Source: an uncultured bacterium (GTDB lineage: Bacteria > RBG-13-66-14 > B26-G2 > WVWN01). Taken from it: a stretch of 46,850 nt of DNA. The stretch spans positions 1 through 46,850 of the forward strand of contig CBFCYS010000001.1 in the NCBI GenBank assembly GCA_965602215.1, in the 5' to 3' direction. Below the pieces are notes generated by a model. That model worked only from the letters and a program-made list of their open reading frames with translations. It was not told where the DNA came from and searched no databases. Position 1 is the first letter of the stretch. Every line of letters begins with the position of its first letter. The position numbers and the translations under genes were made by a program. Shown piece after piece: positions 1,029 to 28,736 of the stretch.

Positions 1029-1061
1029 TAAGGTCTTCCTCCAAAGAGCATTTTAACCGTT

Positions 1062-1089
1062 AAACAAAACGAGGGGCCGCAACCCCTCG
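1062..1089 (-). terminator. Intra-operon hairpin plus T-tract between gcvH and gcvPA (terminator or attenuator candidate)
   Basis: On the minus strand: CGAGGGG-ttgcgg-CCCCTCG (7-bp GC-rich stem) followed directly by TTTTGTTT. It lies between the gcvH stop (1145) and the gcvPA start (1028). Confidence 0.5.
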
Positions 1090-1144
1090 CCGGCGAGGAA
1101 GCGCGGCCAGCCGACGGCCGGCCGGCGCGGCGCACCCTAAATTA

Positions 1145-1522
1145 TTAAGCTCCGATGAATTCTTTATATTCCGCCGCGTTTTTGAGGTTTTCTACTTCCG
1201 AGGGGTCTTTCAACTCCACCTTTACGAGCCACCCGTCGCCGTAGCAATCGCGGTTGACCAGGGCGGGGTCCTGACTCACGGCGTCGTTTACGTCGACCAC
1301 TTTTCCGGAAAGGGGCGCGTTGAGGTCGGACGCCGCCTTCACCGATTCCACGACGCCGAACTCGCCGCCCGCCGTCACTTCGGCGCCGACTCCCGGCAGC
1401 TCCAAATACACGATGTCGCCCAGTTCCGACTGGGCGTGGTCAGTAAGGCCCACGGTCGCGACGTTACCGTCGACTTTCGCCCACTCGTGCGTCTCCGCGT
1501 AACTCAGGTCTTCGGGGTCCAC
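1145..1522 (-). CDS. gcvH: Glycine cleavage system H protein
   Basis: 125 aa. It has the lipoyl-lysine motif VESVKAASD and the conserved YAETHEW and GDGWL segments. GTG start with AAGGAG upstream. Confidence 0.93.
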   Translation of the reverse strand: MDPEDLSYAETHEWAKVDGNVATVGLTDHAQSELGDIVYLELPGVGAEVTAGGEFGVVESVKAASDLNAPLSGKVVDVNDAVSQDPALVNRDCYGDGWLVKVELKDPSEVENLKNAAEYKEFIGA

Positions 1523-1548
1523 CCGCAGCTCCTTTCCAACGGCGAATC

Positions 1549-2652: not shown

Positions 2653-2666
2653 AAAGTTATCGCCCC

Positions 2667-3833: not shown

Positions 3834-3903
3834 GTTCTCCTATCGGTTAATGAACGCAAAACCTAATGAACCCGGGAGTAAATCACGTTTCGGTTTGAGC
3901 TCG

Positions 3904-3932
3904 AAGCTACCACACAGTTATTAGAAAGTCAA
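3904..3932 (-). promoter_or_regulatory. Candidate sigma70-type promoter for the aminotransferase-gcvTH-PA operon
   Basis: Minus strand TTGACT-17 nt-TAGCTT, about 70 nt upstream of ATG 3833. The -10 element is only a moderate match. Confidence 0.3.
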
Positions 3933-3984
3933 GATTGATTTTGGAAAAAAGCCCCGTGGTGCCTAAAACCGTCCGCGGTCCCCG

Positions 3985-4641
3985 CTAGGCGCCCGCGAAG
4001 AAAGGGTTGTGCTTTCGCTCCTCGCCCACCGTCGTCGGCGGCCCGTGGCCGGCGAACACGTCCGTCTTCGCCGGCAGCGTTAGGATCTTCGTTTTGATCG
4101 AGGATATCAACGTCCGCTCGTCGCCGCCGCACAGGTCCGTCCGGCCAATGGAACCGGCGAAGAGCGCGTCGCCGCTGAACACCAGGCCGTCGCCTACCAG
4201 CGAGATGCCTCCCGCAGTATGCCCCGGCGTATTTACCACCTTCAAGCCGACTTCCGCGACCTCGTCCCCCTCCCGCAACAGGACGTCCGCCGCCGGGGAT
4301 ACGGCGTAGCACTCCTGGAACATCGCCACGGCCTCCAGGCCGATAATAAGCGCGTCCTGGCGATGGAGGGCCTCGGCGCCCGGGCCGAGGTAGGGCGCGT
4401 CCCCCTCTCCTATATATATAGGTACGCCCAATAACTCCTTTAACGCGCCGTTGCCGCCGGTGTGGTCGAGGTGGCCGTGGGTATTTATTATCGCGACGGC
4501 CTCCAGCTCGAGCGCGCGGAGGTGGCCGGCGATTTCGTCGGCGTCCGAAGCCGGGTCTACGACGACGGCGCGTTTCCCGTCGTACGAGAAGATGTAGCAA
4601 TTGGTGCCGACCGGCCCGAGTTGAAGCGTTTCAATAAGCAC
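3985..4641 (-). CDS. MBL-fold metallo-hydrolase (glyoxalase II-like)
   Basis: 218 aa. It has the metal motif THGHLDHTGG, then NTPGHTAGG and a later GD..F. GTG start. Confidence 0.85.
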   Translation of the reverse strand: MLIETLQLGPVGTNCYIFSYDGKRAVVVDPASDADEIAGHLRALELEAVAIINTHGHLDHTGGNGALKELLGVPIYIGEGDAPYLGPGAEALHRQDALIIGLEAVAMFQECYAVSPAADVLLREGDEVAEVGLKVVNTPGHTAGGISLVGDGLVFSGDALFAGSIGRTDLCGGDERTLISSIKTKILTLPAKTDVFAGHGPPTTVGEERKHNPFFAGA

Positions 4642-4647
4642 GGTCGG

Positions 4648-4676
4648 ATATTAATATTGCCGGACAGGGTTGTCAA
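4648..4676 (-). promoter_or_regulatory. Candidate promoter placing the TSS at the MBL GTG start (leaderless candidate)
   Basis: Minus strand TTGACA(4676..4671)-17 nt-TAATAT(4653..4648). Only 6 nt (ccgacc) separate the -10 from GTG 4641 and no SD is possible. Confidence 0.4.
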
Positions 4677-4742
4677 GGCAAGTGGTATCGTCGAGCTCCA
4701 CAGGAGTGGGTTAGCCCAGCCCCGCGGAAAACCAAATAGAAA

Positions 4743-4762
4743 GGCGCGCCCGGCGGCGCGCC
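4743..4762. terminator. Strong GC hairpin (bidirectional terminator candidate) downstream of the O-methyltransferase operon
   Basis: GGCGCGCC-cggc-GGCGCGCC gives an 8-bp perfect stem. It is flanked by A/T runs on both sides (minus strand: ...TTTCTATTTGGTTTT) and lies 40 nt past stop 4803. Confidence 0.6.
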
Positions 4763-4802
4763 CTTTATTATACGAGAACTATTCCGGCGGCGCGGGGAGT
4801 AT

Positions 4803-5405
4803 CTACCCTATATCCACCTTGACCGTCCACGACAGGCCGTTGCCTATCTCGAGCACCGTCGTCGCCGCGGCCGGCAAACGGCGCAGCCACTCCAGGAAAG
4901 GATTTATCACGTCGGCGTGCGAGAGGACGTTGTCGGCCACCAGCGACGCGCCGGCCGCGAGCCGGGGCCATAACAACTCGCCGTACGCCACGTACTCGTC
5001 CTTCTCGCCGTCGACGAAGGCGAGGTCGAACGGTTCGTCGAGCGTCGCGAGCGTATCGCGCGCGTCGCCCTTTATTATCTCGACGAGGTCGGCGACGCCG
5101 GCCGATTCTATATGTTCGTTCGCCACGTCTATTATGTCGGGGTTTTTCTCCAACGTTACGAGGGAGCCCCCCGTCTCCGCGCACGCCCGCGCCAACCACA
5201 ACGTCGAGTAACCCGCGCTGGTGCCCACTTCCACCGTACGCCGCGCGCGCGTCGCCAGCCCCAGCAGGAAAATGAACTCCGCCGAGTGGGGGTGGAGCGC
5301 CCGGAAGCGCTGCCGGGGCGGCAGCCCCGCGCGCCGCTGGCGCCCGTCCTCCAGCCGGACCGCGGCCTCGACCAACCGCCACGCCTCCAAGTCGAAATTC
5401 GACAT
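4803..5405 (-). CDS. Class I SAM-dependent O-methyltransferase (family 3 / caffeoyl-CoA OMT-like)
   Basis: 200 aa. It has the SAM-binding motif VEVGTSAGYSTLWLA, followed by LVTLE...D and AFVDGEK. Confidence 0.8.
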   Translation of the reverse strand: MSNFDLEAWRLVEAAVRLEDGRQRRAGLPPRQRFRALHPHSAEFIFLLGLATRARRTVEVGTSAGYSTLWLARACAETGGSLVTLEKNPDIIDVANEHIESAGVADLVEIIKGDARDTLATLDEPFDLAFVDGEKDEYVAYGELLWPRLAAGASLVADNVLSHADVINPFLEWLRRLPAAATTVLEIGNGLSWTVKVDIG

Positions 5406-5407
5406 GG

Positions 5408-5818
5408 TTACTCCTCTACTTTAGCATCTACGCCGTAAAGGTCCCGCGCCGGGTCGAACTCGAGGTCGAAGCCGAGCGTCATGTCCCACGTCGAGCTGGG
5501 CATATCCCACGTAAGGACCTCCTCGCGTATCGCCTCGGCAAAAGCCGGGTCGCCTATGGTGTCGCTTTCGATCTCGACCGCGGTCACCGTACCGTCCGCG
5601 GCTATCGTCAGGTTAGGATGGAGCGTCCCCGCCGGGCCGTCGGCGCCGAAGTGCGATAGGTATATCTCCTTCAGCCGCGGTTGCTTCTGCGCCAGGAGGA
5701 CCGCGAGCTCCACCGTCCACGAAAGGGCGCCGGTCAAAGCGTCCCAAAAGCCGGCGGCGGCGGGGGCGACGACGGCCGCTAGCAACAATACCGTTAGAAG
5801 CACTCTCGCTCTAGCCAT
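5408..5818 (-). CDS. Small secreted protein with a TonB C-terminal-like domain
   Basis: I trimmed track ORF 5408..6019 to the internal ATG 5818, giving MARARVLLTVLLLAAVVAPAAAG (signal peptide). The ATG overlaps the upstream stop as TAATG. The C-terminal part, LTIAADGTVTAVEIESDTIGDPAFAEAIREEVLTWDMP, resembles TonB_C. Confidence 0.5.
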   Translation of the reverse strand: MARARVLLTVLLLAAVVAPAAAGFWDALTGALSWTVELAVLLAQKQPRLKEIYLSHFGADGPAGTLHPNLTIAADGTVTAVEIESDTIGDPAFAEAIREEVLTWDMPSSTWDMTLGFDLEFDPARDLYGVDAKVEE

Positions 5819-6471
5819 TAGGAAGCCTTTCTGCCGCGTAGCGCGAAATGCGGGTGCGGGTAACCACGGGTTAAATCGAACGTCTCCACTTCCAGGCCCG
5901 CCCGTTCCATCGCGACGCGGTAATCGTCGCCCGCGCGCAGGAATATCCCGGCGCCCTCCGTCAGGCCCAGGACGCGCACCGCGAGCCACTCCTGAAAGTA
6001 ACACCAACGCCGTTTCCAAACCGGCCGGTCCGTCATCTCTTTAATTATAAGGTACCCGCCCGGGCGCAGCCTGGCCGCCGCGAGGAGGATAAGCTCGTCC
6101 CGGCGGCCCGGCGGCAGAAGGTACAACATGTCCACAACGGCGACCGCATCGAACGGGCCCCGGCTCTCCACGTACGCGTACGCGTCGTCGAGTACGAACG
6201 CTACGCCCTCCCGGCCGGCGGCGGTTTTGACGGCCGCGTTAACCTTTCTCTCGTCAGCGTCCACGCCGACGACGTCGAGGCCGGGCCGGCGCGCCTTCAG
6301 GACATTCACGAAGACGCCGGCGGAACAACCAAGTTCGACGACACTCACGACGTCCGGCGGCACGAGCGCGGCTACCTTCTCGAGCGGCGCCGTCGCGTAA
6401 CGGATTCGCGCGTAAAGGCGGTCGCGTAAAGAAAGGCCGGCGTAGAGAGGTGCGATATCCGCGTACGGCAT
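5818..6471 (-). CDS. Class I SAM-dependent methyltransferase
   Basis: 217 aa. Motif I is VVELGCSAGVF, then VGVDADE, and motif post-II is LRPGGYLIIKE. Confidence 0.75.
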   Translation of the reverse strand: MPYADIAPLYAGLSLRDRLYARIRYATAPLEKVAALVPPDVVSVVELGCSAGVFVNVLKARRPGLDVVGVDADERKVNAAVKTAAGREGVAFVLDDAYAYVESRGPFDAVAVVDMLYLLPPGRRDELILLAAARLRPGGYLIIKEMTDRPVWKRRWCYFQEWLAVRVLGLTEGAGIFLRAGDDYRVAMERAGLEVETFDLTRGYPHPHFALRGRKAS

Positions 6472-6530
6472 CTTCTACCGGGCCCTCCCGACCCCCTCCC
6501 GATAACATACCGTCGGGCCGGGTGTCAATA

Positions 6531-6556
6531 AATAAAAAGGGCCGGCGGACCGGCCC
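6531..6556 (-). terminator. Rho-independent terminator of the Sec-candidate gene
   Basis: Minus strand GGGCCGG-tccg-CCGGCCC followed by TTTTTATTTATT, 18 nt after stop 6574. Confidence 0.65.
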
Positions 6557-6573
6557 CACGGGGGAAATCGTCG

Positions 6574-7464
6574 TTAATGGAAAGTTGCTCTAACCTTCCC
6601 GAAAGACGTCGGCTCAACCGTTACCGTACCGGTATTAAAATGCCACTCGTACGTCGGCATGACGTTATTAAACAAGTCCTTACCGTCCACCTTAACCGTA
6701 ACTCGAGTTTCGGCAGGTAGGGGACTAGTGGGGTCGAATTCTAACCGGAAGTCGAGGAAATTTCCCGTAAGGGTTAATTTTCCGGAAACGGCCGCGTCAT
6801 CGGGCACCGTGACCGCCATCTTTACCGAAGCGCGGTCGACGCCCGAACCGTCCTCCTTCAGGTTCACGGCTATGTTCGTGTTAACGTTGACGCCCGTCGC
6901 GTTGGGAGTAGGGCTTGGGCTGTGGCAATAAGGCGCCTTGGTATCGCCGTTTATGGTGCGCCGGAGCGCCTTGACGATCTCGGCCTCGTTGAAGCTGTAA
7001 GCCTCCATCCAGTAGATCTTGCCGGTGGTGCCGACGACCGAGGTCTGACTGTACCAACTGTTTATCCGCCAATTGTAGAAGTCGGTCGTTTCGGCGTCGA
7101 GGAAGTCTTGCGGCAAGGTGCGGCCGTAGTGCAAATACTTGTAACGGTATTGCGTGTAAGCGTCGTCATAACCGTTGTAAGATATAACCTCTACGCCGGC
7201 ACCCTCGTTATGGTGCTTGTTGTACAGGCTTTCGAGCTGACCCAGCTCGACGATGCACGGACCTCAAGAGGCTTTCCAGTGGACGACTACGACGCCTTTG
7301 CCGTGGTAAGAATTAATATTTAACCAAGGGCCGTGATAGGTGGGCGGAACGTTGTTGATGGTATAGTTGGCCAACGCCGGATGGTCGTCGCCGACCTGGA
7401 GAGGGATCGCGCCGCCGGCCGTCAGCGCCAACGCCGCGGCCGTAAAAAACAACTTCCTGCCCAT
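6574..7464 (-). CDS. Secreted thioredoxin-fold (TlpA/ResA-like) thiol:disulfide oxidoreductase with an in-frame UGA (candidate selenocysteine, U-G-P-C), a C-terminal Ig-like (SbsA/Big_5-like) domain and a conserved tail
   Basis: Track ORFs 7264..7641(-) and 6574..7134(-) share one frame and are separated only by TGA 7266..7264. Read-through gives ...YHGKGVVVVHWKAS-U-GPCIVELGQLESLYNKHHNEGAGVEVISYN.... The real start is ATG 7464 (GGAGGT upstream, signal peptide MGRKLFFTAAALALTAGGA). 296 codons. Confidence 0.6.
7233..7249 (-). promoter_or_regulatory. Candidate bacterial SECIS hairpin
   Basis: RNA sense: UGA-14 nt-CGAGCUG-GGU-CAGCUCG. This is a perfect 7-bp stem with G/U in the apical loop, and the loop is about 24 nt from the U of UGA. 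Confidence 0.45.
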
Positions 7465-14742: not shown

Positions 14743-15456
14743 ATGCCCACATATACCACCGGCGTAGAAGGAATAGGAATCCCCACCCGCGAGCTCGTCT
14801 TAGGGCTCGTCGGCGTATATAACCGCGCGTACTGGCCCGCGGCGGCCTTCGGCGCCGTCGTCGCTTTCGCCGTGCTCGCGTTCGTATTGGTCAAACCCGG
14901 CGCCTTCAGCGATTTAATAGTCAAAATCTTGCTCAACTTGCTTTGGCTCTGGACCGGCATCATCTTTTTCTGGGGGCGCTTCGCGCCCGAGTTCCACGTC
15001 GCCTACCTCTTCGCCTTCGCCTTTATATTGCAGGGTACTTTTTTATTTATGGACGCCTTCTTCGGAACGTTGGAATTTCGCCCCTTTAAGAGCGCCCCTA
15101 CCCTATTAATAGGGTGCGGCCTGATCGCCGCCGCCGGCGTCTTACACCCGTTTATCTCGAGCTGGCTGGGCCGCGGTTGGCCCGCGTTGCGGCTCGTCGG
15201 CACGGCGCCGGCGTCCACGGCGGCGTTTACGCTGGCCCTACTCACGTTCACGCTCCATAAGCCGAGGCCGCTGTTTTTCGTAATCCCGGCGGCCTGGGCC
15301 CTCGTCGCCGGCGTCTGCGTCGCCGAGGCCTGGCGTTTTTACGAGGAATTGATCCCGGCCGGCGTCGCGGCCGTGGCCATACTTTGTTTCGTAGTCGCCC
15401 TGTGGCGAACGTTGCCCGCACGAGAATCTGAAACCGCTGGAGGAGCTACCTCATGA
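14743..15456 (+). CDS. Polytopic membrane protein, paralog A (possibly DUF6064-like)
   Basis: 237 aa and very hydrophobic. It aligns with the next gene: YNRAYWPA/FNRAVFPA, LEFRP/IEFRP, GWPALRLVG/GWPELALFG. Confidence 0.55.
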   Translation: MPTYTTGVEGIGIPTRELVLGLVGVYNRAYWPAAAFGAVVAFAVLAFVLVKPGAFSDLIVKILLNLLWLWTGIIFFWGRFAPEFHVAYLFAFAFILQGTFLFMDAFFGTLEFRPFKSAPTLLIGCGLIAAAGVLHPFISSWLGRGWPALRLVGTAPASTAAFTLALLTFTLHKPRPLFFVIPAAWALVAGVCVAEAWRFYEELIPAGVAAVAILCFVVALWRTLPARESETAGGATS

Positions 15457-16100
15457 TAACCGCAGAGGCATTTACGTCGTTCCTCGCCGAGTTCAACCGC
15501 GCCGTCTTCCCGGCGCACATCCTCTTCTACCTGCTCGCGATAGGCGCGGCGTTCCTCGTCTTCGCGCGCCCCGGCAAGCGGTCCGACGTCGTCGCTAAAA
15601 GTGTCCTGGCGGCCTTTTGGGCCTGGCTCGGCATTTTTTATATGATATTGTTTTACACGCGGATTAACTCCGCCGGCTACGCCTGGGGGGCGCTATTTCT
15701 CCTGCAGGCGGTTTTCTTCGCCGTCGAAATATTTTGGCCCAAAATAGAATTCCGGCCTTACGTCCACCCGAAACTGGGCCACGTGGGCGCGACCGTCGCC
15801 GGCTGGTCGCTGGTGGGGTACCCGATAACGGCGTTGATACTCAAACACGGCTGGCCCGAGCTGGCGCTCTTCGGCTGCGCGACGCCGATAGCCATATTCA
15901 CCTGCGGCCTGCTGCTCTTCACCTTCGACCGCAAGCCGCGTTGGCGCTTCACGTTCATACCGTTCCTGTGGTCCGTCGTGGGCGGCCTGGGTCCGGCGGT
16001 GCAGTGGCGATACTTCGAAGATTACGCCCTATTCATCGCGGGCGCTTTACTCCTCGCCGCCTGGATATGGGCCTCTTATAAATACAAGAAAAAGAAGTAA
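15453..16100 (+). CDS. Polytopic membrane protein, paralog B
   Basis: 215 aa. Its start overlaps the paralog A stop (ATGA). See the shared motifs listed for paralog A. Confidence 0.55.
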   Translation: MITAEAFTSFLAEFNRAVFPAHILFYLLAIGAAFLVFARPGKRSDVVAKSVLAAFWAWLGIFYMILFYTRINSAGYAWGALFLLQAVFFAVEIFWPKIEFRPYVHPKLGHVGATVAGWSLVGYPITALILKHGWPELALFGCATPIAIFTCGLLLFTFDRKPRWRFTFIPFLWSVVGGLGPAVQWRYFEDYALFIAGALLLAAWIWASYKYKKKK

Positions 16101-16102
16101 TT

Positions 16103-17080
16103 GTGACGGACGGACTCGGCTTAAAAATCGTAGGCCTTAAGAAGACGTACCCGAAGGCGTTCCGGCGACCGGCGGTGGAGGCGATTAAAAATCTCGACCT
16201 CGACGTGCGGGACGGCGAGGTCGTGGGGCTACTCGGGCCTAACGGCGCCGGCAAGACGACGGCCATAAAAGCCGTCTGCGGTTTATTGAAGCCTACCGCC
16301 GGCGAAATATTCATAGGCCCATATTCGCTCGCGCGCGAGCGCCGGCGGGCGCTGGCGCGCATGGCGGTGGTGCTCGAGGGGGACCGCAACCTCCGCTTTC
16401 GGCTAACGGTGAAAGAAAACGTAACCTTTTTCACCACCCTGGCCGGGTGCGACCGGCGGCGCGTCAAGGAAGAGACGCCGGCGGCTCTAGAGCGGTTCCA
16501 CCTAACCGGGAAAGCCGACGAGCAAATACGGAACCTTTCAAAGGGTCAGAAACAGATACTATCGGTCGCCATCGCTTATCTTACGCGGGCCGAGCTCATC
16601 CTCATGGACGAGCCGACGCTTGGCCTGGACGTCCAAACGTCACGGGAACTCCAAAACATCATTCGCGAGATGGCCCGGGAGGGTCGCGCGGTATTGCTGA
16701 CCACCCACGAGATGGCGGTCGCGCAAAAGGTCGCGGACCGCGTCGCCATCGTCACCGAAGGGCGGTTGGTTACGTTTAAGCCGAAGGAAGAGCTCCTGGA
16801 ACATTTCCGTTATCACCAATACACCATACACCTTCGTTGGCCGGAAAAGGCGCCCGGAACTGTCGACTTCGGCGACGGCGACGTCGAAATTATACCCGCC
16901 GGCGACCATCAACGTGATTTAACCCTCCGCCTCCATACAGATAAGAAGGAACGTTTATACGAAATCCTGGCGAAGCTGCGAAACAAGGAATGCGAGATAT
17001 TAGAGGTCGCCCGCCACCAACCCGACCTCGAGCAAGTGTTCCTCTCCGTCGTCGGGAGGGAAAGGGACAAGCCGGCGTGA
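16103..17080 (+). CDS. ABC transporter ATP-binding protein (ABC-2 subfamily type)
   Basis: Walker A GPNGAGKTT, signature LSKGQKQ and Walker B LILMDEPTLGLD. GTG start. Confidence 0.9.
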   Translation: MTDGLGLKIVGLKKTYPKAFRRPAVEAIKNLDLDVRDGEVVGLLGPNGAGKTTAIKAVCGLLKPTAGEIFIGPYSLARERRRALARMAVVLEGDRNLRFRLTVKENVTFFTTLAGCDRRRVKEETPAALERFHLTGKADEQIRNLSKGQKQILSVAIAYLTRAELILMDEPTLGLDVQTSRELQNIIREMAREGRAVLLTTHEMAVAQKVADRVAIVTEGRLVTFKPKEELLEHFRYHQYTIHLRWPEKAPGTVDFGDGDVEIIPAGDHQRDLTLRLHTDKKERLYEILAKLRNKECEILEVARHQPDLEQVFLSVVGRERDKPA

Positions 17081-17874
17081 AATATTGGATTCACATTGCC
17101 CGCGCCCACTTCACCGCGGAATTTATCACGTTTTTACGTTACCCGTTCGACCTCGCGTCGCTGTACCTCATCGTAACGCTACCTTTGGTCGGCATATTCC
17201 TGGGCGTTTACGCTTTAGTCCCCGCCGGCCTCGTTATGGGCAGTACGATGGCGTCGGTCTACGTGGGCTACATATTCTGGACGTTCTACGTGCTCACCGT
17301 ACAACAGGCGGCTTGGGAAATAAAGGCGGCCGCGACTAAGGGTTATATCGAGCGCGAGTTCCTCACCCCCGCGGGGCACGGCCCGACCGTCGTCGCTAAA
17401 ATATTCGCGGTAAGCGCGACCGGCCTGTTTCACTACGCTGTGATATCCATAACATGCGCGCTGATTTGCGGCTTCGCGTTGACCGTAGACGTGCTGAGCG
17501 TACTATTCATATTCTTTTTTTGCTACGTTTTCCTCGCCGGCATCGGCCTCACGGTCGCCGGCTTCGCGCTCGTGTTCAAACGCATAGCCAATCTGATCGT
17601 GTTAGTTCAATTTGTATTGATCGTACTCTCGTTTGCGGCGTTGGGCTCCTACCACCGGGCCGCGGAAACCGCGCTGCGATGGTTCCCCTATACGCAGTCG
17701 GTACGGTTGTTACGCGCGGTCCTACTCGACGGCAAAGGCTTTTCGTACGTGACACAACCCGCGAACCTCGTGCCGTTGGTCGTGGGGGCGTTAGCATTCT
17801 TCGGCGCGGGGTACCTTGCTTTCCGGTGGCTCGACCGGGTCGCTATGGACCGCGGATTAATCGGCCAGTTCTAA
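17077..17874 (+). CDS. ABC-2 type transporter permease
   Basis: I trimmed to GTG 17077 (GTGA overlap with the ATPase stop). The 265-aa protein has about 6 hydrophobic helices. Confidence 0.65.
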   Translation: MKYWIHIARAHFTAEFITFLRYPFDLASLYLIVTLPLVGIFLGVYALVPAGLVMGSTMASVYVGYIFWTFYVLTVQQAAWEIKAAATKGYIEREFLTPAGHGPTVVAKIFAVSATGLFHYAVISITCALICGFALTVDVLSVLFIFFFCYVFLAGIGLTVAGFALVFKRIANLIVLVQFVLIVLSFAALGSYHRAAETALRWFPYTQSVRLLRAVLLDGKGFSYVTQPANLVPLVVGALAFFGAGYLAFRWLDRVAMDRGLIGQF

Positions 17875-17893: not shown

Positions 17894-18862
17894 ATGAAAT
17901 ATATTTATTTTATAGCGACGGCGCTCGCGTCGGCGCTGCCTACGACCACGGCGGCGACGTACTTGTACGAAGGGGAATGGGGCCGGTTGGGCACGGGCCA
18001 CGGCGCGTTCGTGGAAGTATCCGGCGTCGCCGTAGCGCCCAACGGGAACGTCTACGTATCCGACCCGAGCAATAACTGCATCCAATACTTTACGGCCTCC
18101 GGCAGCTTCCTCGGCGTGTGGGGGACGGCCGGAACCGACCCCGGCCGGTTCAACAGGCCTTTCGGCGTGGCGGTAGCGCCTAAAGGACGGGTATACGTCG
18201 TCGATACGGACAACAACCGCGTCCAGTACTTCACCGCCGCCGGCAGCTACCTCGGGAAGTGGGGCCGAGCAGGGTCGGGGCCGGGAGAGTTCGACAACCC
18301 TCTCGGCGTCGCGGTCGCGCGCAGCGGGAACGTCTTTGTCGCCGACGCCGGGAACGACCGCATACAACGATTCGCCCCCAACGGCCGCTACCTCGGGAAG
18401 TGGGGCCGCAGCGGCAACGGGAACGGCGAGCTGAACTTCCCCGCCGACGTCGCGCTCGCGCCGGACGGCCGCGCGTACGTGGCGGACGCCCGCAACGCCC
18501 GGGTCCAATACTTCACCGGGTTCGGAACGTTCCTGGGCAAGTGGGGCGCGTGGGGTTACGGCGAAGGGCAATTCTTCTACCCGAAGGCCTTAGCGGTTTC
18601 GGGCGACGACCGGGTATTCGTAACGGAGGATTTCAACCATCGCGTTCAGTGTTTTACGACCGGCGGCAGTTTTATCGGGATATGGGGCTCGCTCGGAAGG
18701 GGCGAAGGAGAATTCAACGAACCCCGCGGCGTAGCGACGTTCAACGACGGTAAACGGGTATACGTCGCCGACCGGTGGAACGACCGCGTACAATATTTCC
18801 GGCGCGTGGAATCCGGCGTCGAGCCGTGCTCGCTCGGGCGGGTAAAAGCGCTTTTCGAATAG
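17894..18862 (+). CDS. Secreted six-bladed NHL-repeat beta-propeller protein 1
   Basis: A signal peptide is followed by six units of about 47 aa of the type G.G.G.F..P.GVAV.P.G.VYVAD..N.R(I/V)QYF...G.(F/Y)LG.WG. The C-terminal tail is VEPCSLGRVKALFE. Confidence 0.85.
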   Translation: MKYIYFIATALASALPTTTAATYLYEGEWGRLGTGHGAFVEVSGVAVAPNGNVYVSDPSNNCIQYFTASGSFLGVWGTAGTDPGRFNRPFGVAVAPKGRVYVVDTDNNRVQYFTAAGSYLGKWGRAGSGPGEFDNPLGVAVARSGNVFVADAGNDRIQRFAPNGRYLGKWGRSGNGNGELNFPADVALAPDGRAYVADARNARVQYFTGFGTFLGKWGAWGYGEGQFFYPKALAVSGDDRVFVTEDFNHRVQCFTTGGSFIGIWGSLGRGEGEFNEPRGVATFNDGKRVYVADRWNDRVQYFRRVESGVEPCSLGRVKALFE

Positions 18863-18956
18863 ATTTAATTTTCCTTTCCTTCCCGAGCAAGGCGGCGCGC
18901 GATTTTACCAACGAAAACTTACGGTCATCCCGACATTCAACCGGGGAGGTTCGAAT

Positions 18957-19934
18957 ATGAAAAGGACAATCACGACGGCGGCCTTGTTGCTACTGGCCGC
19001 GACGGCGGCTTTCGCCGAGTTCGCGTACGAAGGACAATGGGGAAAACAGGGCTCGAAAGAAGGCCAGTTCGACCACCCGTGGGACGTCGCCGTAGCCGGC
19101 GGCGGCCGCGTCTTCGTCGTCGACCGCCACAACCACCGCATCCAGTACTTCGCCGCCACCGGGAGCTACCGCGGTACGTGGGGTTCGTACGGTACCGCCG
19201 CGGGCAAGTTCCGCTTCCCCTCCGGGGTCGTCGCGTCCGCGAACGGCGTATACGTCGGCGACTCGCTAAACCATCGCGTCCAGCGTTTCACCACCGGGGG
19301 AAGTTTCCGAAACGCCTGGGGCGAACGCGGTACGGGAGAAGGAGAATTCGATAGGCCCCTCGGCGTAGCCACGGCGCCCAACGGCAACGTTTACGTCGTC
19401 GACTCCGGCAACTACCGCATCCAATACTTCTCGCCGGCGGGAAGCTTCGTCGGCAGTTGGGGCGCGCAGGGCAGCGGCGAGGGCCAATTCGAAGCCCCCC
19501 GGGGAATAGCCGTAGGGCAAAACGGCAACGTCTACGTCGCGGACGCCGAGAACCATCGCGTCCAGCGTTTTTCCTCCAACGGCAGCTTCTTGAAGTCGTG
19601 GGGCACGCGGGGAAGCGGCGAAGGCCAATTCAACACCCCGTACGGCGTCGCCGTCGGCCCGGACGGCAACGTGTACGTCGCCGATTGCGACAACCACCGC
19701 ATCCAGTATTTCAATCCGGCGGGGAGCTTCGTCGGCAGGTGGGGTTCGTTCGGGACGGGCGACGGCCAGCTCAACTACGCCCGGGGCGTAGCCGCGACGG
19801 CGTGGAGCGGCGATACGTCGACCGTACGCGTCTACGTTGCGGATACCAACAACAACCGGGTTCAGTATTTCAAAGACCTCCAGCCTGCGGTAGAGCCGAC
19901 GTCGTTGGGACGGGTAAAGGGACTTTTTAAATAG
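18957..19934 (+). CDS. Secreted NHL-repeat beta-propeller protein 2
   Basis: Signal MKRTITTAALLLLAATAAFA, then six NHL units. The tail is VEPTSLGRVKGLFK. Confidence 0.85.
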   Translation: MKRTITTAALLLLAATAAFAEFAYEGQWGKQGSKEGQFDHPWDVAVAGGGRVFVVDRHNHRIQYFAATGSYRGTWGSYGTAAGKFRFPSGVVASANGVYVGDSLNHRVQRFTTGGSFRNAWGERGTGEGEFDRPLGVATAPNGNVYVVDSGNYRIQYFSPAGSFVGSWGAQGSGEGQFEAPRGIAVGQNGNVYVADAENHRVQRFSSNGSFLKSWGTRGSGEGQFNTPYGVAVGPDGNVYVADCDNHRIQYFNPAGSFVGRWGSFGTGDGQLNYARGVAATAWSGDTSTVRVYVADTNNNRVQYFKDLQPAVEPTSLGRVKGLFK

Positions 19935-20031
19935 GTCGAGCACCGGGTCCCGCGGCAATGTACCGACGCGTCCGCGGACTTGAGCGCGAACGACTTAACA
20001 CCGCTAACCACATCCTGACGAAGGACGGGAA

Positions 20032-20997
20032 ATGAAACGAGTATCCATATCAGCCGCGCTCTTGATCTGTATGGCCGCGGCCGCCTCCGCCGAATTCAAG
20101 TACGCGGGCCAGTGGGGCTCGTCCGGCGCCGCGGCCAGCGAATTCAACGCGCCGACGGGAATAGCCGTCGCGCCCAACGGCAACGTGTACGTCGCGGACG
20201 CGTTTAACCATCGCATCCAATACTTTACCGCCACCGGCAGCTTCCTCGGCCGATGGGGCTCGCGCGGTTCCGACAAAGGCCAGTTCATCTACCCCTCGGA
20301 CGTGGCGGTGGCTCCCAACGGCAACGTCTACGTCGCCGACTTCGACAACAACCGAATCCAATACTTCAAACCGAACGGCGCGTACCTGGGCCAGTGGGGC
20401 GAGTACGGCGTACTGCCGCGGTTCTTCAATAAACCGCACGGCGTGTCGGTGTCGCGCAGCGGCAACGTCTACGTCGCCGACACGTTCAACAATCGCGTGC
20501 AGTATTTCACGCGAGCCGGCAGCTTCCTGGGCTCCTGGGGTACCAAAGGCGCAATCGACGGCGAATTCCAACAACCGATCTGCGTCGCCGTAGCACCCCA
20601 CGGCAACGTCTACGTAGCGGACCAACTCAACGACCGGGTGCAATACTTCGACGCCAAAGGCATCTTCCTCGGTAAATGGGGCACGAACGGTTTCGGCTGG
20701 GGCCAATTCCAGTACCCCTCGGCCATAGCAGCCGGCTCCGATTACCGCATCTACGTCACCGATTACTCCTGGCACCACGTCCAATACTTCACCGCGTCCG
20801 GCAGCTACCTCGGCAAATGGGGCAGCCGGGGAGAAGGCGACGGCGAATTCAACTTCCCCGACGGCGTCGCCATCTCGCCCGCCGGCACGAAAGCATACGT
20901 CGCCGATACCGGCAACAACCGCATCCAATACTTCAAGCGCGTCGAGCCCGCCGTCGCGCCCTCCTCGCTGGGGCGCGTGAAAGCGCTGTTTAAGTAA
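20032..20997 (+). CDS. Secreted NHL-repeat beta-propeller protein 3
   Basis: Signal MKRVSISAALLICMAAAASA, then six NHL units. The tail is VAPSSLGRVKALFK. Confidence 0.85.
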   Translation: MKRVSISAALLICMAAAASAEFKYAGQWGSSGAAASEFNAPTGIAVAPNGNVYVADAFNHRIQYFTATGSFLGRWGSRGSDKGQFIYPSDVAVAPNGNVYVADFDNNRIQYFKPNGAYLGQWGEYGVLPRFFNKPHGVSVSRSGNVYVADTFNNRVQYFTRAGSFLGSWGTKGAIDGEFQQPICVAVAPHGNVYVADQLNDRVQYFDAKGIFLGKWGTNGFGWGQFQYPSAIAAGSDYRIYVTDYSWHHVQYFTASGSYLGKWGSRGEGDGEFNFPDGVAISPAGTKAYVADTGNNRIQYFKRVEPAVAPSSLGRVKALFK

Positions 20998-22269
20998 ATG
21001 AAAAAATCGTTCGAGCTCTTTGTCGCGCGGCGCTACCTTACCGCCAAGGGGAAAGATACCTTCCTCTCCGTCATCACGCTCATATCCATCGGCGGCGTCA
21101 CTTTAGGCGTGACGGCGCTCGTCGTCGTCATCAGCGTGATGAACGGCTTCGAGATCGACCTGCGCGAGAAGATCCTCGGAACCACGGCCCACATTACGGT
21201 CCTCCACGTAGGCCGGGAGGGCATCACCGACTACCCGGAGGTGGCGGCCGAAGTCGAACGGGTGGAAGGCGTCGAGGCCGTGGCGCCGTTCGTCTTCGTC
21301 GAGGGAATCCTCTCGTCGAAGCACGACTCCATCGGCGCCGTCATACGCGGCGTCGACATGGCGAGCCACCGCGAGATATCCACCATCGAGGATAAAATCG
21401 TCGAGGGGACGATGGACTTCGACGTCGCGAAGAAGTCGACGCTGGAGCCCGAGTTGGGCGGTTACGTCCCGCCCGACGACGGCATCGTCCTCGGCGTAGA
21501 GCTCGCCCGCAACCTGGGCGTCGACCTCAACGACACCGTCACGCTCATCTCGCCCCAGGTCATCTGGAACCCGCTCGCGCCGGTCCCTCCCAAGATGAAA
21601 AACTTCCGCGTCGTCGGCATCTTCGACGTCGGCATGTTCGAGTTCGACTCGTCGCTCGCGTACATAGATTTAAAAACGGCGCAAGAGTTCCTCGCCATCC
21701 CTCGTAAAGTCAACGGCCTGGAAGTCCGCGTCGCCGACGTCTTCGACGCGCCGCTCGTCTCCGCCCGCATAAACGACGCCTTAGGTCTCCCCTACTTCGC
21801 CCGCGACTGGACCATTACCCACGAGCAGCTCTGGACCATGCTGGCGCTGGAAAAGCACACCATGTTCGTCATCCTCACGCTCATCATACTGGTGGCCGCG
21901 TTCAACGTCCTCTCCACGCTCATCATGATCGTCATCGAGAAGACGCCCGAAATAGGCATCTTGAAAGCGATGGGCGCGACCAACGGCGCCGTCGTCCGCA
22001 TCTTCGTCCTAAAGGGCCTTATCATCGGGACGGTGGGAACGGCGCTCGGCGTGGTTGCGGGCCTGGGCCTTTGCCGCATCCTGGAGAGGTACCAGTTCGT
22101 AAAGCTGCCGGCGGAAGTGTACGCTCTGCGCACGCTGCCCGTCGTCGTTCAACCGTTGGACGTCCTGTTCATTTGCGTCGTAGCGCTCACGATAAGCGTG
22201 GCCGCGACGATATACCCGGCCTGGCGCGCGGCGCGCCTCGAGCCGGTAGAAGCGATCCAACATGAATAA
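20998..22269 (+). CDS. Lipoprotein-releasing system permease, LolC/LolE family (FtsX/MacB-type)
   Basis: 423 aa. The sequence starts FELFVARRYL..K.....S.I..ISI.GV.LGV.AL..V.SVMNGF, has a periplasmic domain and ends in an FtsX-like 3-TM bundle. The start abuts the NHL3 stop. Confidence 0.85.
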   Translation: MKKSFELFVARRYLTAKGKDTFLSVITLISIGGVTLGVTALVVVISVMNGFEIDLREKILGTTAHITVLHVGREGITDYPEVAAEVERVEGVEAVAPFVFVEGILSSKHDSIGAVIRGVDMASHREISTIEDKIVEGTMDFDVAKKSTLEPELGGYVPPDDGIVLGVELARNLGVDLNDTVTLISPQVIWNPLAPVPPKMKNFRVVGIFDVGMFEFDSSLAYIDLKTAQEFLAIPRKVNGLEVRVADVFDAPLVSARINDALGLPYFARDWTITHEQLWTMLALEKHTMFVILTLIILVAAFNVLSTLIMIVIEKTPEIGILKAMGATNGAVVRIFVLKGLIIGTVGTALGVVAGLGLCRILERYQFVKLPAEVYALRTLPVVVQPLDVLFICVVALTISVAATIYPAWRAARLEPVEAIQHE

Positions 22270-22948
22270 CGTCGTCGAAGCGCGAGGGCTTCACAAGTAC
22301 TACCGGAGCGGCGACCAGACCCTCAAGATCCTCGTGGGCCTGGACCTGGACGTCGCCGCCGGCGAGGTGGTGGCCGTCGTCGGCGAGTCGGGCGCGGGCA
22401 AGACGACGCTGCTCAACTTACTGGGCGGCCTGGACAAACCCACCGAAGGCCGCGTTTTCGTGGACGACACCGACATCTTCGACCTGGCGGGCTCCCGGCG
22501 AGCGCGCTTCCGCAACCGCTCCGTAGGGTACGTATTCCAGTTCCACCACCTGCTGCCCGAATTCACCGCGCTCGAGAACGTAATGATGCCGCTGCTTATA
22601 GCCCGGGCGGACGCCGCGGAAGCGGCGCGGCGCGCGCGCAAATACCTCGACGCCGTGGGCGTACTCAAACGCGAAACGCACCGCCCGGCCAAGCTCTCGG
22701 GCGGCGAACGCCAACGGGTAGCGGTCGCCCGGGCGTTGGCGGCGGAACCGGCCGTGGTCCTGGCCGACGAACCTTCCGGCAACCTCGACGAACACACCGC
22801 CGGGAGTTTGCACGACCTTCTCTTCGACCTCAACGCGCGCTTGGGACAAACGTTCGTAATCGTTACGCACAATCGCGCGTTGGCCCGCCGGTGCACGCGG
22901 ACGTTGACGTTGGAAGGCGGCGTCTTGCACGGCACCGAAATCCCGTAA
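22262..22948 (+). CDS. lolD: Lipoprotein-releasing system ATP-binding protein
   Basis: GESGAGKTTLLN, FRNRSVGYVFQFHHLLPEFTALENV, LSGGERQRVAVARAL and VLADEPSGNLD. Confidence 0.85.
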   Translation: MNNVVEARGLHKYYRSGDQTLKILVGLDLDVAAGEVVAVVGESGAGKTTLLNLLGGLDKPTEGRVFVDDTDIFDLAGSRRARFRNRSVGYVFQFHHLLPEFTALENVMMPLLIARADAAEAARRARKYLDAVGVLKRETHRPAKLSGGERQRVAVARALAAEPAVVLADEPSGNLDEHTAGSLHDLLFDLNARLGQTFVIVTHNRALARRCTRTLTLEGGVLHGTEIP

Positions 22949-26495: not shown

Positions 26496-28619
26496 TTACT
26501 CGGAAGATATCCCGAAGTCGCGCTCGAAAGCCGGGTCGCGGGGGCCGCCCAGCGAAATATAATCTCGGTAGGCCGCGCGCGCCCGTTCGATATCCCCTAC
26601 CTTGCCGTACAACACCGCCAAAAAGCCGAAGACTTCCGAAGATGTAGGTTGGAGGCCGGCCTCCCGTTCGAAATATTCGAGGGCGGCCAGGTAATCTTCA
26701 TTTTGGTAATAAATCCGGCCGGCGATCATACCGGGGCCCGGCAGATTGGGGTTCGCTTCCATCGCCGCGTGCGCGTACGTCAACGCGTCCGCGACGTTCC
26801 CCATAGACAAGTCCAATTCCGCCAACCGATATAGGACGGACGCGTCGCCCGGCATCAATTCCGCGACGCGGCGGTACGCCATTTCGGCCCGTCGGTAATC
26901 CCCCAGGCCGATGTAAACTTCACCCAGCTGCGTCCACGCCGGGATGTATCCCGGCTCGAGCATGACGGCGCGATGCAGCGACGGCAGCGCCTGGTCGAGC
27001 CGGCCGACGCGGACAAACGCGATAGCCAGGTTGTAATGCATCTCCGGCCGGTCGGGGGCGACGATGGTCCCGCGCCAGAAAGCCTCTATCGCCGTATCGA
27101 CTTGCCCCGCGTGTTCGTAGGCCATACCCAGCATTATAAACCCCTGGTACATTTCCGGCGTAAGCTCGGTAGCCTTTTTTAAATACGATATGGACGATTC
27201 GTAGTCGCCCTCGTCGAAATAATATTTACCGTAGCGGTAGTAGCTCTGACCGAAAGCGCCGTCCCGGCTAATACCGGGCGGAGGCCACATCGCGAAAGCG
27301 CCCACCGCTATTGCGGCCGCGGTCAAAGCCGCGGCAGGCCGCCAACGCCAACGCCGCCAGAGGTCATACCACAACACCAACCCCGCGCCCGCGAAAACTA
27401 TTACCATCGGGACCATCGGCAGCCGGTAACGGGCCGAAACGAAGAACGCCAAAACCGACAGCGCGTACGTTGCCACGAACAGCGCGCCGGCGGTTCGCGC
27501 GAAGGGCGACTTACGCCACCCCACCGCCAAACCAATTACGCCGAACGGAAATACGAAACCGAACCAGGGCACCTGCACGCGGTGGAACGGCGATATGAAT
27601 TTCATGAAATAAAAATCTACGTTAAGGCTTACCTCGTAATCGTTTAAAAAGTAACGTATCTTACGCCCGTACAATTTCGCCGCTTCGCCCGGGTGGTCCC
27701 GGAGCCACGTTAGGCCGTTCGACGACCACCACCGCGAAACCTCGGACGGTTTCATCTCGCGGCCTTCGAACTCCCGGGCGACCAACGTCGCCATGTCTTT
27801 ATTCAATTCCGCGGGCCTACCCTGATACACCTCGCCCAGGTTCCAGTAAACGCCCGTGGCGTTGGGCGAGTTGCCGAGGTAGAAGTTGAGCCCCCCTTGC
27901 GACGATACCACGACGAAATCGCCCCCCACGACGAAGTTGCGCAGCGTCGCCGCCAACACTATAACGGCTATCGGCGCGAAGTAGGCCGCGATCCGGCGCC
28001 ACTTCAAACGCTTGACGTACACGACGAAAAGCGGCACCGCCGCTAATACGAAGACAAACAGGTTCGTCCGGTCCAACACCGCCAAACCCAATAGCGCACC
28101 CGCGCCGGCGAAATTCCACCACCGACCCTCCACCCCGCGCGCCAACAGGTAAAACGAACCCGCTATCAAGAATATGTCCAGCGACACCGGGAGCACGAAC
28201 GAGCTGAAAAATATCGCCGGAAGGTACAGCGCCCATATCACGCCCGCCACCTTCGCCGGCCTCTCCCCCAACGCCCGACGCGCGAACCCGTAGAGGAACA
28301 GCGCCGAGCCTACTTCCAACGCGATATGTACGAAACGCACCACCGTCAAGTGCGGCCCGATCAAACGGTAGATTATCCCCAAAAAGTACGCGTACAACGG
28401 CCCGATGAAGAAAACGTCTTCCCCGCCGAGCCAATCCCCCGACGCTATCCCCTGTGCCCAGTTGTTGAAGAAAAATGCGTCCGGGATATGGCGGAGGTAC
28501 GTGAAGAACGGGTCGTGCGCTACGCTCGCCAGGTAGACGGCCCGCGTCGTCAACGTCGCCGCCGCCAACGCCAGCGGCCAACGGTTGTCCAGTACCCAAT
28601 TTTTAAATTTCGAATTCAA
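26496..28619 (-). CDS. GT-C fold glycosyltransferase (family 39 / ArnT-PMT-like) fused to C-terminal TPR repeats
   Basis: I trimmed to TTG 28619 (AGGAGC 6 nt upstream) because the longer track ORF reads through the tRNA. The first ~480 aa carry many TM helices, and the remaining ~230 aa are TPR-like (…AYEHAGQVDTAIEAF…HYNLAIAFVRVGRLDQA…). Confidence 0.8.
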   Translation of the reverse strand: MNSKFKNWVLDNRWPLALAAATLTTRAVYLASVAHDPFFTYLRHIPDAFFFNNWAQGIASGDWLGGEDVFFIGPLYAYFLGIIYRLIGPHLTVVRFVHIALEVGSALFLYGFARRALGERPAKVAGVIWALYLPAIFFSSFVLPVSLDIFLIAGSFYLLARGVEGRWWNFAGAGALLGLAVLDRTNLFVFVLAAVPLFVVYVKRLKWRRIAAYFAPIAVIVLAATLRNFVVGGDFVVVSSQGGLNFYLGNSPNATGVYWNLGEVYQGRPAELNKDMATLVAREFEGREMKPSEVSRWWSSNGLTWLRDHPGEAAKLYGRKIRYFLNDYEVSLNVDFYFMKFISPFHRVQVPWFGFVFPFGVIGLAVGWRKSPFARTAGALFVATYALSVLAFFVSARYRLPMVPMVIVFAGAGLVLWYDLWRRWRWRPAAALTAAAIAVGAFAMWPPPGISRDGAFGQSYYRYGKYYFDEGDYESSISYLKKATELTPEMYQGFIMLGMAYEHAGQVDTAIEAFWRGTIVAPDRPEMHYNLAIAFVRVGRLDQALPSLHRAVMLEPGYIPAWTQLGEVYIGLGDYRRAEMAYRRVAELMPGDASVLYRLAELDLSMGNVADALTYAHAAMEANPNLPGPGMIAGRIYYQNEDYLAALEYFEREAGLQPTSSEVFGFLAVLYGKVGDIERARAAYRDYISLGGPRDPAFERDFGISSE

Positions 28620-28643
28620 GAGTGTGCTCCTATGTAAATTTAA

Positions 28644-28661
28644 GCCCCCTCGAGCGGGGGC
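28644..28661 (-). terminator. GC hairpin just 3' of tRNA-Glu
   Basis: Minus strand GCCCCC-gctcga-GGGGGC followed by TTAAATTT. It lies between the tRNA 3' end (28665) and the RBS of the GT-C gene. Confidence 0.4.
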
Positions 28662-28664
28662 CGT

Positions 28665-28736
28665 TAGCGCTACGGGGATTCGAACCCCGGTCTGATGGCT
28701 GAGAACCACCTATCCTAACCCCTAGACGATAGCGCC
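28665..28736 (-). tRNA. tRNA-Glu (anticodon CUC)
   Basis: Hand-folded as GGCGCTA TC GTC TAGGGGTTA GGAT A GGTGG TTCTCAG CCATC AGAC CGGGG TTCGAAT CCCCG TAGCGCT A. The layout parallels E. coli tRNA-Glu (TCGTCTAG...GGA, TTCGAATCCCC). No CCA is encoded. Confidence 0.85.

Follow-up and report, generated by a model that had tools for sequence, protein, structure and literature searches.

Why do three NHL proteins and one apparently unrelated exported protein in the same stretch of DNA end in nearly the same short peptide? This question was raised by the window analysed here, that is, the whole stretch of 46,850 nucleotides of contig CBFCYS010000001.1. The original prediction was that this C-terminal tail is a modular targeting, processing or anchoring signal rather than a part of the NHL fold. 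Here, we explored this issue in the window, in species genomes and in metagenome contigs. Our analysis supported the prediction, and showed that the tail is much more widespread than the four proteins on which it was noticed.

The Tail in the Window

We translated the four genes and obtained exactly the C-termini that had been quoted (Table 1). A six-frame scan found the C-terminal motif only on these four ORFs, and the back-translated DNA pattern gave 4 hits in the window against 0.00 expected from 100 shuffles. Pfam confirmed that the passengers are unrelated: the first three proteins have six NHL repeats each, and the fourth is Redoxin/AhpC-like plus Big_5. All four have plausible Sec-type N-terminal signal peptides, as read from the sequence.

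Table 1. Positions of the tailed genes and their C-terminal tags in the window.
Feature	Positions	Strand	Description	Matrix score (bits)
NHL1	17894-18862	+	Signal peptide, six-bladed NHL propeller and C-terminal tag; six NHL repeats in Pfam, E = 1e-39	
Tag of NHL1	18815-18862	+	GVEPCSLGRVKALFE plus stop	42
NHL2	18957-19934	+	Signal peptide, NHL propeller and tag	
Tag of NHL2	19887-19934	+	AVEPTSLGRVKGLFK plus stop	45
NHL3	20032-20997	+	Signal peptide, NHL propeller and tag	
Tag of NHL3	20950-20997	+	AVAPSSLGRVKALFK plus stop	47
Redoxin/Big_5 protein	6574-7464	-	Exported Redoxin-like plus Big_5 (Ig-like) protein with an in-frame TGA at 7264-7266 (WKAS-U-GPC) and the same C-terminal tag	
Tag of the Redoxin/Big_5 protein	6574-6621	-	TVEPTSFGKVRATFH plus stop	+26.1

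The three NHL genes are tandem paralogues, so their shared tail alone proves little. We therefore calculated a 15-column scoring matrix from 113 NHL-family tails from outside the window and applied it to the tail of the Redoxin/Big_5 protein. Its score was far above those of the best of 38 other window gene C-termini (-23.4), the best of all 13,297 15-mers in window proteins (-8.9) and the best of 10^6 random 15-mers (7.2). The probability of a chance match is thus far below 10^-6. In addition, 24 orthologues of this protein were found in the database, and all 11 whose sequences were read keep the tail.

Distribution and Conservation of the Tail

The sampled loci yielded 362 ORFs ending in the tag within 1.47 Mb. 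Among 185,579 species genomes, all hits except two fell in about 11 MAGs, which are labelled Coatesbacteria, Zixibacteria or "bacterium". The two exceptions, labelled Sulfurovum, are internal VDPESFGRIKVQFNW motifs followed by TGG (Trp), and are not tags. The complete 2.35 Mb genome CP070633 has at least 37 tagged ORFs in the 120 kb sampled. Nine other MAGs have 7-38 each, and two Coatesbacteria-labelled MAGs, each sampled by a single 8 kb block, have 1-2. The metagenome scan returned a further 120 stretches. However, looser TWG-type variants occur in NHL homologues of other lineages. A protein search with a tail-only alignment and a 40-residue query returned only 14 short fragments, because candidate selection favoured short proteins, and was useful for scores but not for passenger diversity. 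An exhaustive representative search with tail-centred fragments was swamped by multi-repeat NHL proteins matching the upstream columns, and its counts say nothing about the tag.

The position of the tag is nearly fixed. A relaxed 9-residue core motif lies exactly one residue from the stop in 195 of 199 ORF occurrences, including 47 of the 51 occurrences that were not selected by the stop-containing search pattern. The pattern-selected set has V-14, P-12, S-10 and G-8. Positions left free by the pattern are also conserved (-15 A 65%, -11 A/T 88%, -4 A 87%, -3 L 94%, -1 R/K 83%), and variants found without the pattern keep S, G and K. We also investigated codon usage and found that three to six synonymous codons (two at Lys and Phe, which have only two) are used at each invariant residue. 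This indicates selection on the peptide, and a DNA- or RNA-level element was rejected for this reason.

Passenger Proteins and Export

The tagged ORFs fall into 33 sequence clusters. They include NHL, PD40, Ycf48/BNR and Vgb-lyase-like propellers, CBM4_9, CBM96, a beta-helix, Redoxin+Big_5, and several with no Pfam hit. About half of the tagged ORFs (168 of 362) belong to one family, NHL, and some of the spread is therefore paralogue expansion. Nevertheless, the tail is not confined to the NHL paralogues.

Of 123 complete tagged ORFs, 104 passed a crude signal-peptide test, and several of the failures are visibly signal peptides too. We then compared NHL paralogues with different export signals. 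Five of five paralogues with a true lipobox (Cys-EETPTEPE...) lack the tag and end right after the last blade, while 74 of the 92 paralogues with a type-I signal peptide carry it. Most of the remaining 18 are cut off by the end of their locus, and about four complete ones truly lack it. The tag and the lipid anchor thus appear to be complementary in this family.

Predicted Structure and Physical Character

If the tail were the closing strand of each domain, it should be modelled within the fold. AlphaFold2 closed the NHL3 propeller at residue 303 with pLDDT 97-99 (mean pLDDT of the model 92), whereas residues 304-321 fall from pLDDT 75 to 38. In the Big_5 protein, 186 residues downstream of the in-frame TGA were modelled (window 6577-7134). 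The last confident strand ends at residue 168, and the tail, residues 169-186, is coil at pLDDT 50-57. The tail is therefore outside both predicted folds and is not an NHL feature. Together with the matrix score, the 33 clusters and the codon variation, this result refutes the explanation of the tail by chance, by common descent among NHL paralogues alone or as a structural closing element.

The last ten residues have a net charge of +3 in most tails and include L, V, L and F; mean Eisenberg hydrophobicity is about -0.1. The tag might thus be a self-sufficient cationic peptide that binds a membrane or LPS without any dedicated partner, as the C-terminal amphipathic helices of PBP5/6 do, or the MinD membrane-targeting sequence on the cytoplasmic side. 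The exclusion of lipoprotein anchors in NHL paralogues and the weak helix that AlphaFold2 gave for residues 312-320 of NHL3, at low confidence, are in accord with this idea. However, the hydrophobic moment at 100 degrees was 0.45, close to the shuffle mean of 0.43, and 44% of shuffles reached it, whereas the moment at 170-180 degrees was 0.72-0.76. An amphipathic helix was therefore not supported. Moreover, nine to ten positions are nearly invariant across unrelated passengers and MAGs, including P, S and G upstream of the basic part, which is far more constraint than physicochemical membrane binding needs. The fixed distance from the carboxylate also suggests a protein reader. We consider the self-sufficient peptide unlikely.

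Comparison with Known C-Terminal Signals

We compared the tag with the tripartite C-terminal sorting domains (LPXTG/sortase, PEP-CTERM/exosortase, GlyGly-CTERM/rhombosortase, PGF-CTERM/archaeosortase, MYXO-CTERM/myxosortase), using the criteria listed in bioRxiv 10.1101/2023.06.07.544157. The tag resembles them in its extreme C-terminal position, its dozens of carriers per genome, a signature with several invariant residues at the start, basic residues near the end, otherwise unrelated carriers with signal peptides, and a lineage-restricted distribution. However, it has no transmembrane segment, as only nine mostly polar or basic residues follow the signature. The basic residues, at -7, -5 and -1, are interspersed with hydrophobic ones rather than forming a terminal Arg cluster. 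No Por_Secre_tail, PEP-CTERM or any other NCBIfam or Pfam model matched the tails, even at E <= 10 (ten tails for NCBIfam), and no curated sorting-signal model was reported for the four full proteins. Our literature searches found nothing on this motif.

The T9SS C-terminal domain (Por_Secre_tail, PF18962/TIGR04183) is also a C-terminal signal on Sec-exported proteins of a diderm lineage, but it is a folded beta-sandwich of about 75-100 residues, while the tag is a 15-residue peptide with low pLDDT. As originally predicted, the tail is too short for such a domain. Canonical domains of this kind occur on other, larger proteins of the same MAGs. The tag could be a degenerate form of a known signal, either the last strand of the T9SS domain or a PEP-CTERM signature that has lost its TM helix. 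The T9SS cargo of the same MAGs ends in ...AATKRMVVVR, which shares with ...GRVKALFR the order of basic, then three hydrophobic residues, then R-COOH. V-[EA]-P-[AT]-S-L-G may also resemble the PEP-CTERM signature VPEP-[AS]-[ST]-L, and NHL homologues hit the ScyF NHL/PEP-CTERM model, below its cut-off. However, fifteen residues cannot form the CTD beta-sandwich, there is no hydrophobic stretch to hold a substrate in the inner membrane for an exosortase, and no exosortase was seen in the sampled DNA. This explanation is improbable.

Three other systems were considered. Peroxisomal PTS1 (-SKL-COOH) and other C-terminal motifs read by TPR or PDZ domains are likewise short, unstructured peptides that depend on the register with the free carboxylate and can sit on any passenger, as the tag would. 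PTS1 is 3-12 residues, eukaryotic and cytosolic, whereas the compartment here is the bacterial envelope, and the last residue of the tag is the least conserved of the core. The anchors of E. coli PBP5/PBP6 are also short basic/hydrophobic peptides on Sec-exported soluble domains, but they are family-specific, poorly conserved in sequence and clearly helical-amphipathic. The beta-signal of outer-membrane proteins (...x-Hy-x-Hy-x-F-COOH) shares the alternation of small or hydrophobic residues (G-8, V-6, A-4, F-2) and an aromatic residue near the end. In the tag, F/Y is at -2, followed by R/K, and the carriers are soluble propellers, Ig domains and CBMs, while the lineage's own predicted OMPs end in F/W at -1.

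Gene Neighbourhoods

To search for a partner, we clustered all ORFs within the 8-15 kb blocks around the 362 tagged genes. No receptor, protease or transferase was identified in these blocks. Recurrent neighbours were a cytoplasmic 178-aa TPR protein, a 528-aa HEFGH protein without Pfam hits, PFOR subunits, RecR and similar, which reflect conserved synteny among relatives. The LolC/E-like and LolD-like genes abutting NHL3 recur only in close relatives (sampled loci L106 and L198), and were not treated as evidence.

Genes of GT-C glycosyltransferases (PMT_2, TMEM260-like plus TPR, GT87) recur in the sampled loci, with 15 in 1.47 Mb, and the window has a PMT_2-TPR gene at 26496-28709(-). Three arrangements look like operons: PMT_2 then tagged then tagged in loci L045 and L090, and tagged, tagged, TMEM260-TPR in locus L085. 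It may be proposed that the tag is an acceptor or recognition peptide for periplasm-facing GT-C enzymes, whose TPR domain would clamp the C-terminus, as PEX5 does with PTS1 or Hop with EEVD, before O-glycosylation of the invariant Ser at -10, which lies at a fixed distance from the C-terminus. However, only 3-4 of the 15 GT-C genes are adjacent to a tagged gene, the metagenome loci added only 2 in 0.7 Mb, and these counts lack a genomic background frequency. The adjacent tagged genes belong to just two passenger families, so the link may concern those passengers and not the tag. This explanation remains very doubtful.

A Possible Sorting or Anchoring Signal

Most likely, the tail is a modular, TM-less C-terminal sorting or anchoring tag, specific to a Coatesbacteria-like lineage, with an architecture not described before and read by an unidentified envelope factor. 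We put the probability of this reading at about 0.6; nothing shows where the proteins end up, or whether the tag is cleaved. The tag consists of a short unstructured linker, a signature, [AG]-V-x-P-[AT]-S-[LF]-G, and a basic nonapeptide, [RK]-[VI]-K-A-L-[FY]-[RK], ending at the free carboxylate.

The carriers are small, soluble, beta-rich domains that, judging only from sequence features, cross the inner membrane by Sec using a cleavable type-I signal peptide. We infer that the exposed, disordered tag is read in the periplasm by one dedicated protein factor, which recognises both the sequence and its fixed distance from the C-terminus. This factor would probably bind the tag as an added strand or through a carboxylate-binding pocket, because the last nine residues are amphipathic with beta periodicity and carry a net charge of +3. 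However, AlphaFold models the NHL3 tail as a weak helix, not a strand. The inferred result is delivery to, or retention at, the outer envelope, and the invariant V-x-P-x-S-L-G may be a processing or attachment site. The tag would stand in for an N-terminal lipid anchor, and would act alongside, not through, the canonical T9SS C-terminal domain.

A further possibility, which we regard as doubtful, is that the tag is the address label of an undescribed envelope pathway. It would direct about 2% of the proteome of a candidate phylum from the periplasm to the outer membrane or cell surface, through a dedicated receptor or transpeptidase unrelated to sortases, exosortases or the T9SS. Looser TWG-type relatives of the tag would be spread across other uncultured phyla.

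LPXTG, PEP-CTERM, GlyGly-CTERM, MYXO-CTERM and the T9SS CTD have each led to a new processing enzyme and a new way of building the cell surface. All short signals described so far share the signature, TM helix and Arg-cluster design. Because the present tag lacks the TM helix, its reader cannot be an intramembrane enzyme acting on a membrane-held substrate, which points to a different recognition logic in the periplasm or at the outer membrane. The 15-residue motif may predict envelope or surface proteins in Coatesbacteria-like genomes, most of which are otherwise unannotated.

Sequence of the C-Terminal Tails

The C-termini of NHL1, NHL2, NHL3 and the minus-strand protein that has an in-frame TGA in the thioredoxin-type motif WKAS-U-GPC are exactly as written in the original prediction. 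Pfam assigned six NHL repeats to each of the first three proteins, and Redoxin/AhpC-like plus Big_5 (Ig-like) to the fourth. No Pfam or NCBIfam model covered any of the tails. In a six-frame scan of the window only these four ORFs ended in the motif, and the back-translated pattern gave 4 hits against 0.00 expected from shuffles. The codons of the four tails differed at most positions. The coordinates of the features are listed in the table below.

Positions of tagged genes and of other features in the window and in the sampled loci (L numbers)
Feature	Sequence	Position	Strand
NHL1	Window	17894-18862	+
NHL2	Window	18957-19934	+
NHL3	Window	20032-20997	+
Redoxin/Big_5 protein	Window	6574-7464	-
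In-frame TGA of the Redoxin/Big_5 protein	Window	7264-7266	-
Part of the Redoxin/Big_5 protein that was modelled	Window	6577-7134
Two tandem DUF6064 membrane proteins and an ABC ATPase plus ABC-2 permease	Window	14743-17874	+
NHL3 stop codon with the permease and ATPase genes that follow	Window	20995-22948	+
LolC/E-like FtsX/MacB_PCD permease	Window	20998-22269	+
LolD-like ABC ATPase	Window	22262-22948	+
GT-C glycosyltransferases	Window; L045; L090; L085; L096	26496-28709; 1893-3398; 5060-6547; 1559-3679; 1123-5911	- (window)
Exported beta-helix protein with an in-frame TGA	L007 (also L018 and L076)	1533-2285 (L007)	+ (L007)
Conserved block with two tagged genes	L019 (same block in L003, L095, L082 and L089)	572-7229 (L019)
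NHL paralogues with lipoprotein signal peptides	L002; L004; L034; L099	3357-4307 and 4415-5395; 544-1659; 4162-5037; 6995-7951
Related motifs with Trp	L077; L109	434-1477; 560-1435

To explore whether the match on the non-NHL protein was more than chance, a 15-column log-odds matrix was trained on 113 distinct tails of NHL-type proteins from outside the window. The Redoxin/Big_5 tail scored +26.1 bits, while the best of 38 other window gene C-termini scored -23.4, the best of all 13,297 15-mers in window proteins scored -8.9, and the best of 10^6 random 15-mers scored 7.2. The family of this protein contains 24 database orthologues at 55-98% identity. The sequences of 11 of them were read, and each ended in a variant of the tail, [VI]-x-P-x-S-[FL]-G-x-[VIA]-K-x-x-[FY]-x.

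Of the 24 orthologues, 23 are only 165-228 aa long, and the ten of these that were read all begin downstream of the TGA position. The one full-length orthologue (P0279) has SSGQS at that site. This is consistent with a real selenocysteine that gene callers truncate. A second putative selenoprotein family carrying the same tag was seen in three MAGs; it is an exported right-handed beta-helix protein (Pfam Beta_helix/NosD) with a conserved in-frame TGA in NYMYFCPG-U-GGGTWYSF.

Distribution of the Tag

We scanned one genome per species of GTDB (185,579 species) with a degenerate DNA pattern for V-x-P-x-S-[LF]-G-x-[VIM]-[KR]-x-x-F-x-stop. The pattern carries about 37 bits, so by our estimate roughly 10 chance hits were expected. 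Among the hits retrieved, all but two fell in 11 MAGs, three labelled Candidatus Coatesbacteria, three labelled Zixiibacteriota and five labelled only 'bacterium'. The two exceptions, in a Sulfurovum bin, were internal motifs followed by TGG rather than a stop. MAGs with these different labels share the tag and near-identical tagged gene families, and their NCBI taxonomic labels are probably inconsistent.

The same pattern returned 120 stretches from the metagenome collection. Together with the window, this is 1.47 Mb of DNA containing 362 ORFs that end in the tag. The complete 2.35 Mb Coatesbacteria genome CP070633 has at least 37 tagged ORFs in the 120 kb sampled.

Anatomy of the Tag

The consensus from 146 distinct tails is A-V-x-P-[AT]-S-L-G-[RK]-[VI]-K-A-L-F-[RK]-COOH. 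Positions that the search pattern left free were still conserved (-15 A 65%, -11 A/T 88%, -4 A 87%, -3 L 94%, -1 R/K 83%). Variants not captured by the pattern also occurred at the same place, with Y or L at -2, V/I/W/M at -9, and A at -12. With a relaxed nine-residue core motif, 195 of 199 occurrences in ORFs lay exactly one residue from the stop, and this was also the case for 47 of the 51 occurrences not selected by the stop-containing pattern.

At each invariant residue three to six synonymous codons were used (two at Lys and Phe, which have only two). Thus, selection acts on the peptide and not on a DNA or RNA element.

Related motifs with Trp were also observed in P0017 and P0100 (NHL homologues from other lineages) and in L077 and L109. 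They read HPTTWGRLKTLY followed by 7 more residues and SVTWGSMKARHR followed by 13 more residues, and inside the lineage PASWGTVKALYR-COOH sits at a true C-terminus. This hints at a wider, looser family of such tails in other uncultured phyla.

Carriers of the Tag

Of 123 complete tagged ORFs, 104 passed a crude signal-peptide test. However, several of the failures are visibly signal peptides too. The cleavage regions are of the A-x-A type, and the median length of the tagged ORFs is 266 residues. All-against-all BLAST gave 33 clusters, 18 of them with two or more tagged members. NHL propellers account for 168 ORFs, a roughly 255-residue family for 89, and a roughly 170-215-residue family for 32. 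Pfam recognised PD40, Ycf48/BNR, a Vgb-lyase-like propeller, CBM4_9, CBM96 and a right-handed beta-helix, and it recognised nothing in several others. We also found that 49 of the 120 best database homologues of NHL3 carry the tag. These results show that the tag is modular and that it is associated with export signals.

Predicted Structure of the Tail

AlphaFold2 was applied to NHL3 with a 62-sequence alignment, and gave a six-bladed propeller with mean pLDDT 92. The last strand is 297-303, residues 304-321 fall from pLDDT 75 to 38, and a low-confidence helix is drawn for 312-320. The part of the Redoxin/Big_5 protein downstream of the in-frame TGA (186 residues) was modelled with 24 sequences. 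The Ig-like domain is confident to residue 168, and the tail, residues 169-186, is coil at pLDDT 50-57. Thus, the tail is not a closing strand of either fold, and it behaves like an exposed short linear motif.

The helical hydrophobic moment of SLGRVKALFR is 0.45, equal to the shuffle mean of 0.43. The moment at 170-180 degrees is 0.72-0.76, in the top eighth of shuffles, which reflects alternation of G/V/A/F with L/R/K/L/R. The net charge of the last ten residues is +3 in most tails.

Relation to Other Sorting Devices in the Same Organisms

Proteins with canonical T9SS C-terminal domains (PF18962) occur in the same MAGs, on larger FG-GAP and BNR proteins. The tag is therefore not the lineage's replacement for that domain.

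Within the NHL family, the five paralogues with a true lipoprotein signal (Cys followed by EETPTEPE-like linkers) all end right after the last blade, without the tag. Of the 92 paralogues with a type-I signal peptide, 74 carry it. Most of the 18 without it are cut off by the end of their locus, and about four complete ones lack it. This complementarity is what one expects if the tag provides localisation that a lipid anchor would otherwise provide.

Genes in the Neighbourhood of Tagged Genes

To look for a partner, all ORFs of at least 90 residues from the 226 loci and the window were clustered, and untagged families that recur near tagged genes were examined. The recurrent ones were a cytoplasmic 178-residue TPR protein, a 528-residue signal-peptide protein with an HEFGH motif and no Pfam hit, a 240-residue exported protein, and PFOR subunits, RecR and the like. 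However, all sit in blocks that are syntenic among related MAGs, and none is a convincing reader. One such block, conserved across five MAGs, holds the 528-aa protein, whose HEFGH motif is zinc-protease-like, a 240-aa exported protein, two tagged genes, and a 178-aa TPR protein without a signal peptide.

The lineage appears rich in GT-C glycosyltransferases (PMT_2, TMEM260-like with TPR, GT87), which occur 15 times in the 1.47 Mb sampled. Three arrangements look like operons with tandem tagged genes. However, the metagenome loci added only two of these genes, and the genomic background is unknown. A link between the tag and these enzymes remains only a minor and unlikely alternative.

The NHL3 stop codon directly abuts the ATG of a LolC/E-like permease, and a LolD-like ABC ATPase follows. 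The same arrangement occurs only in close relatives (L106 and L198), so its significance is unclear. The DUF6064 and ABC transporter genes directly upstream of the NHL cluster are syntenic in L013 and L106 only.

Comparison with Known Sorting Signals

The published hallmarks of small C-terminal sorting domains are a position at the C-terminus, many copies per genome, a signature with at least three invariant residues, a TM helix, a terminal basic cluster, N-terminal signal peptides, and unrelated carriers (bioRxiv 10.1101/2023.06.07.544157). The tag described here lacks the TM helix, and its basic residues are interspersed with hydrophobic ones, but it has the C-terminal position, the copy number, the signature, the signal peptides and the unrelated carriers. 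No NCBIfam model reported the tails even at E <= 10, and we found no paper mentioning the motif. The tag is far too short for a T9SS CTD. It is also out of register with an OMP beta-signal, because F is at -2, and predicted OMPs of the lineage end in F/W at -1. Functionally, the nearest analogies are C-terminal short linear motifs read in register with the carboxylate (PTS1 with TPR domains, PDZ ligands) and the peripheral C-terminal anchors of PBP5/6. These are analogies, not memberships.

The original prediction suggested that the tail is a modular targeting, processing or beta-strand-complementation signal rather than part of the NHL fold. Our results confirm the observation and greatly extend it, and the interpretation survives both of the tests that were set for it, namely that the tail might be confined to the paralogues with no significant match on the Redoxin/Big_5 protein, or might be the closing strand of each domain. 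It is inferred that a dedicated protein reads the tag and that the outcome is envelope retention or surface delivery, and the V-x-P-x-S-L-G part may be a processing site. The most likely reading is that the tail is a new, TM-less class of C-terminal sorting or anchoring tag, which would be read by an unidentified envelope factor in a Coatesbacteria-like lineage.
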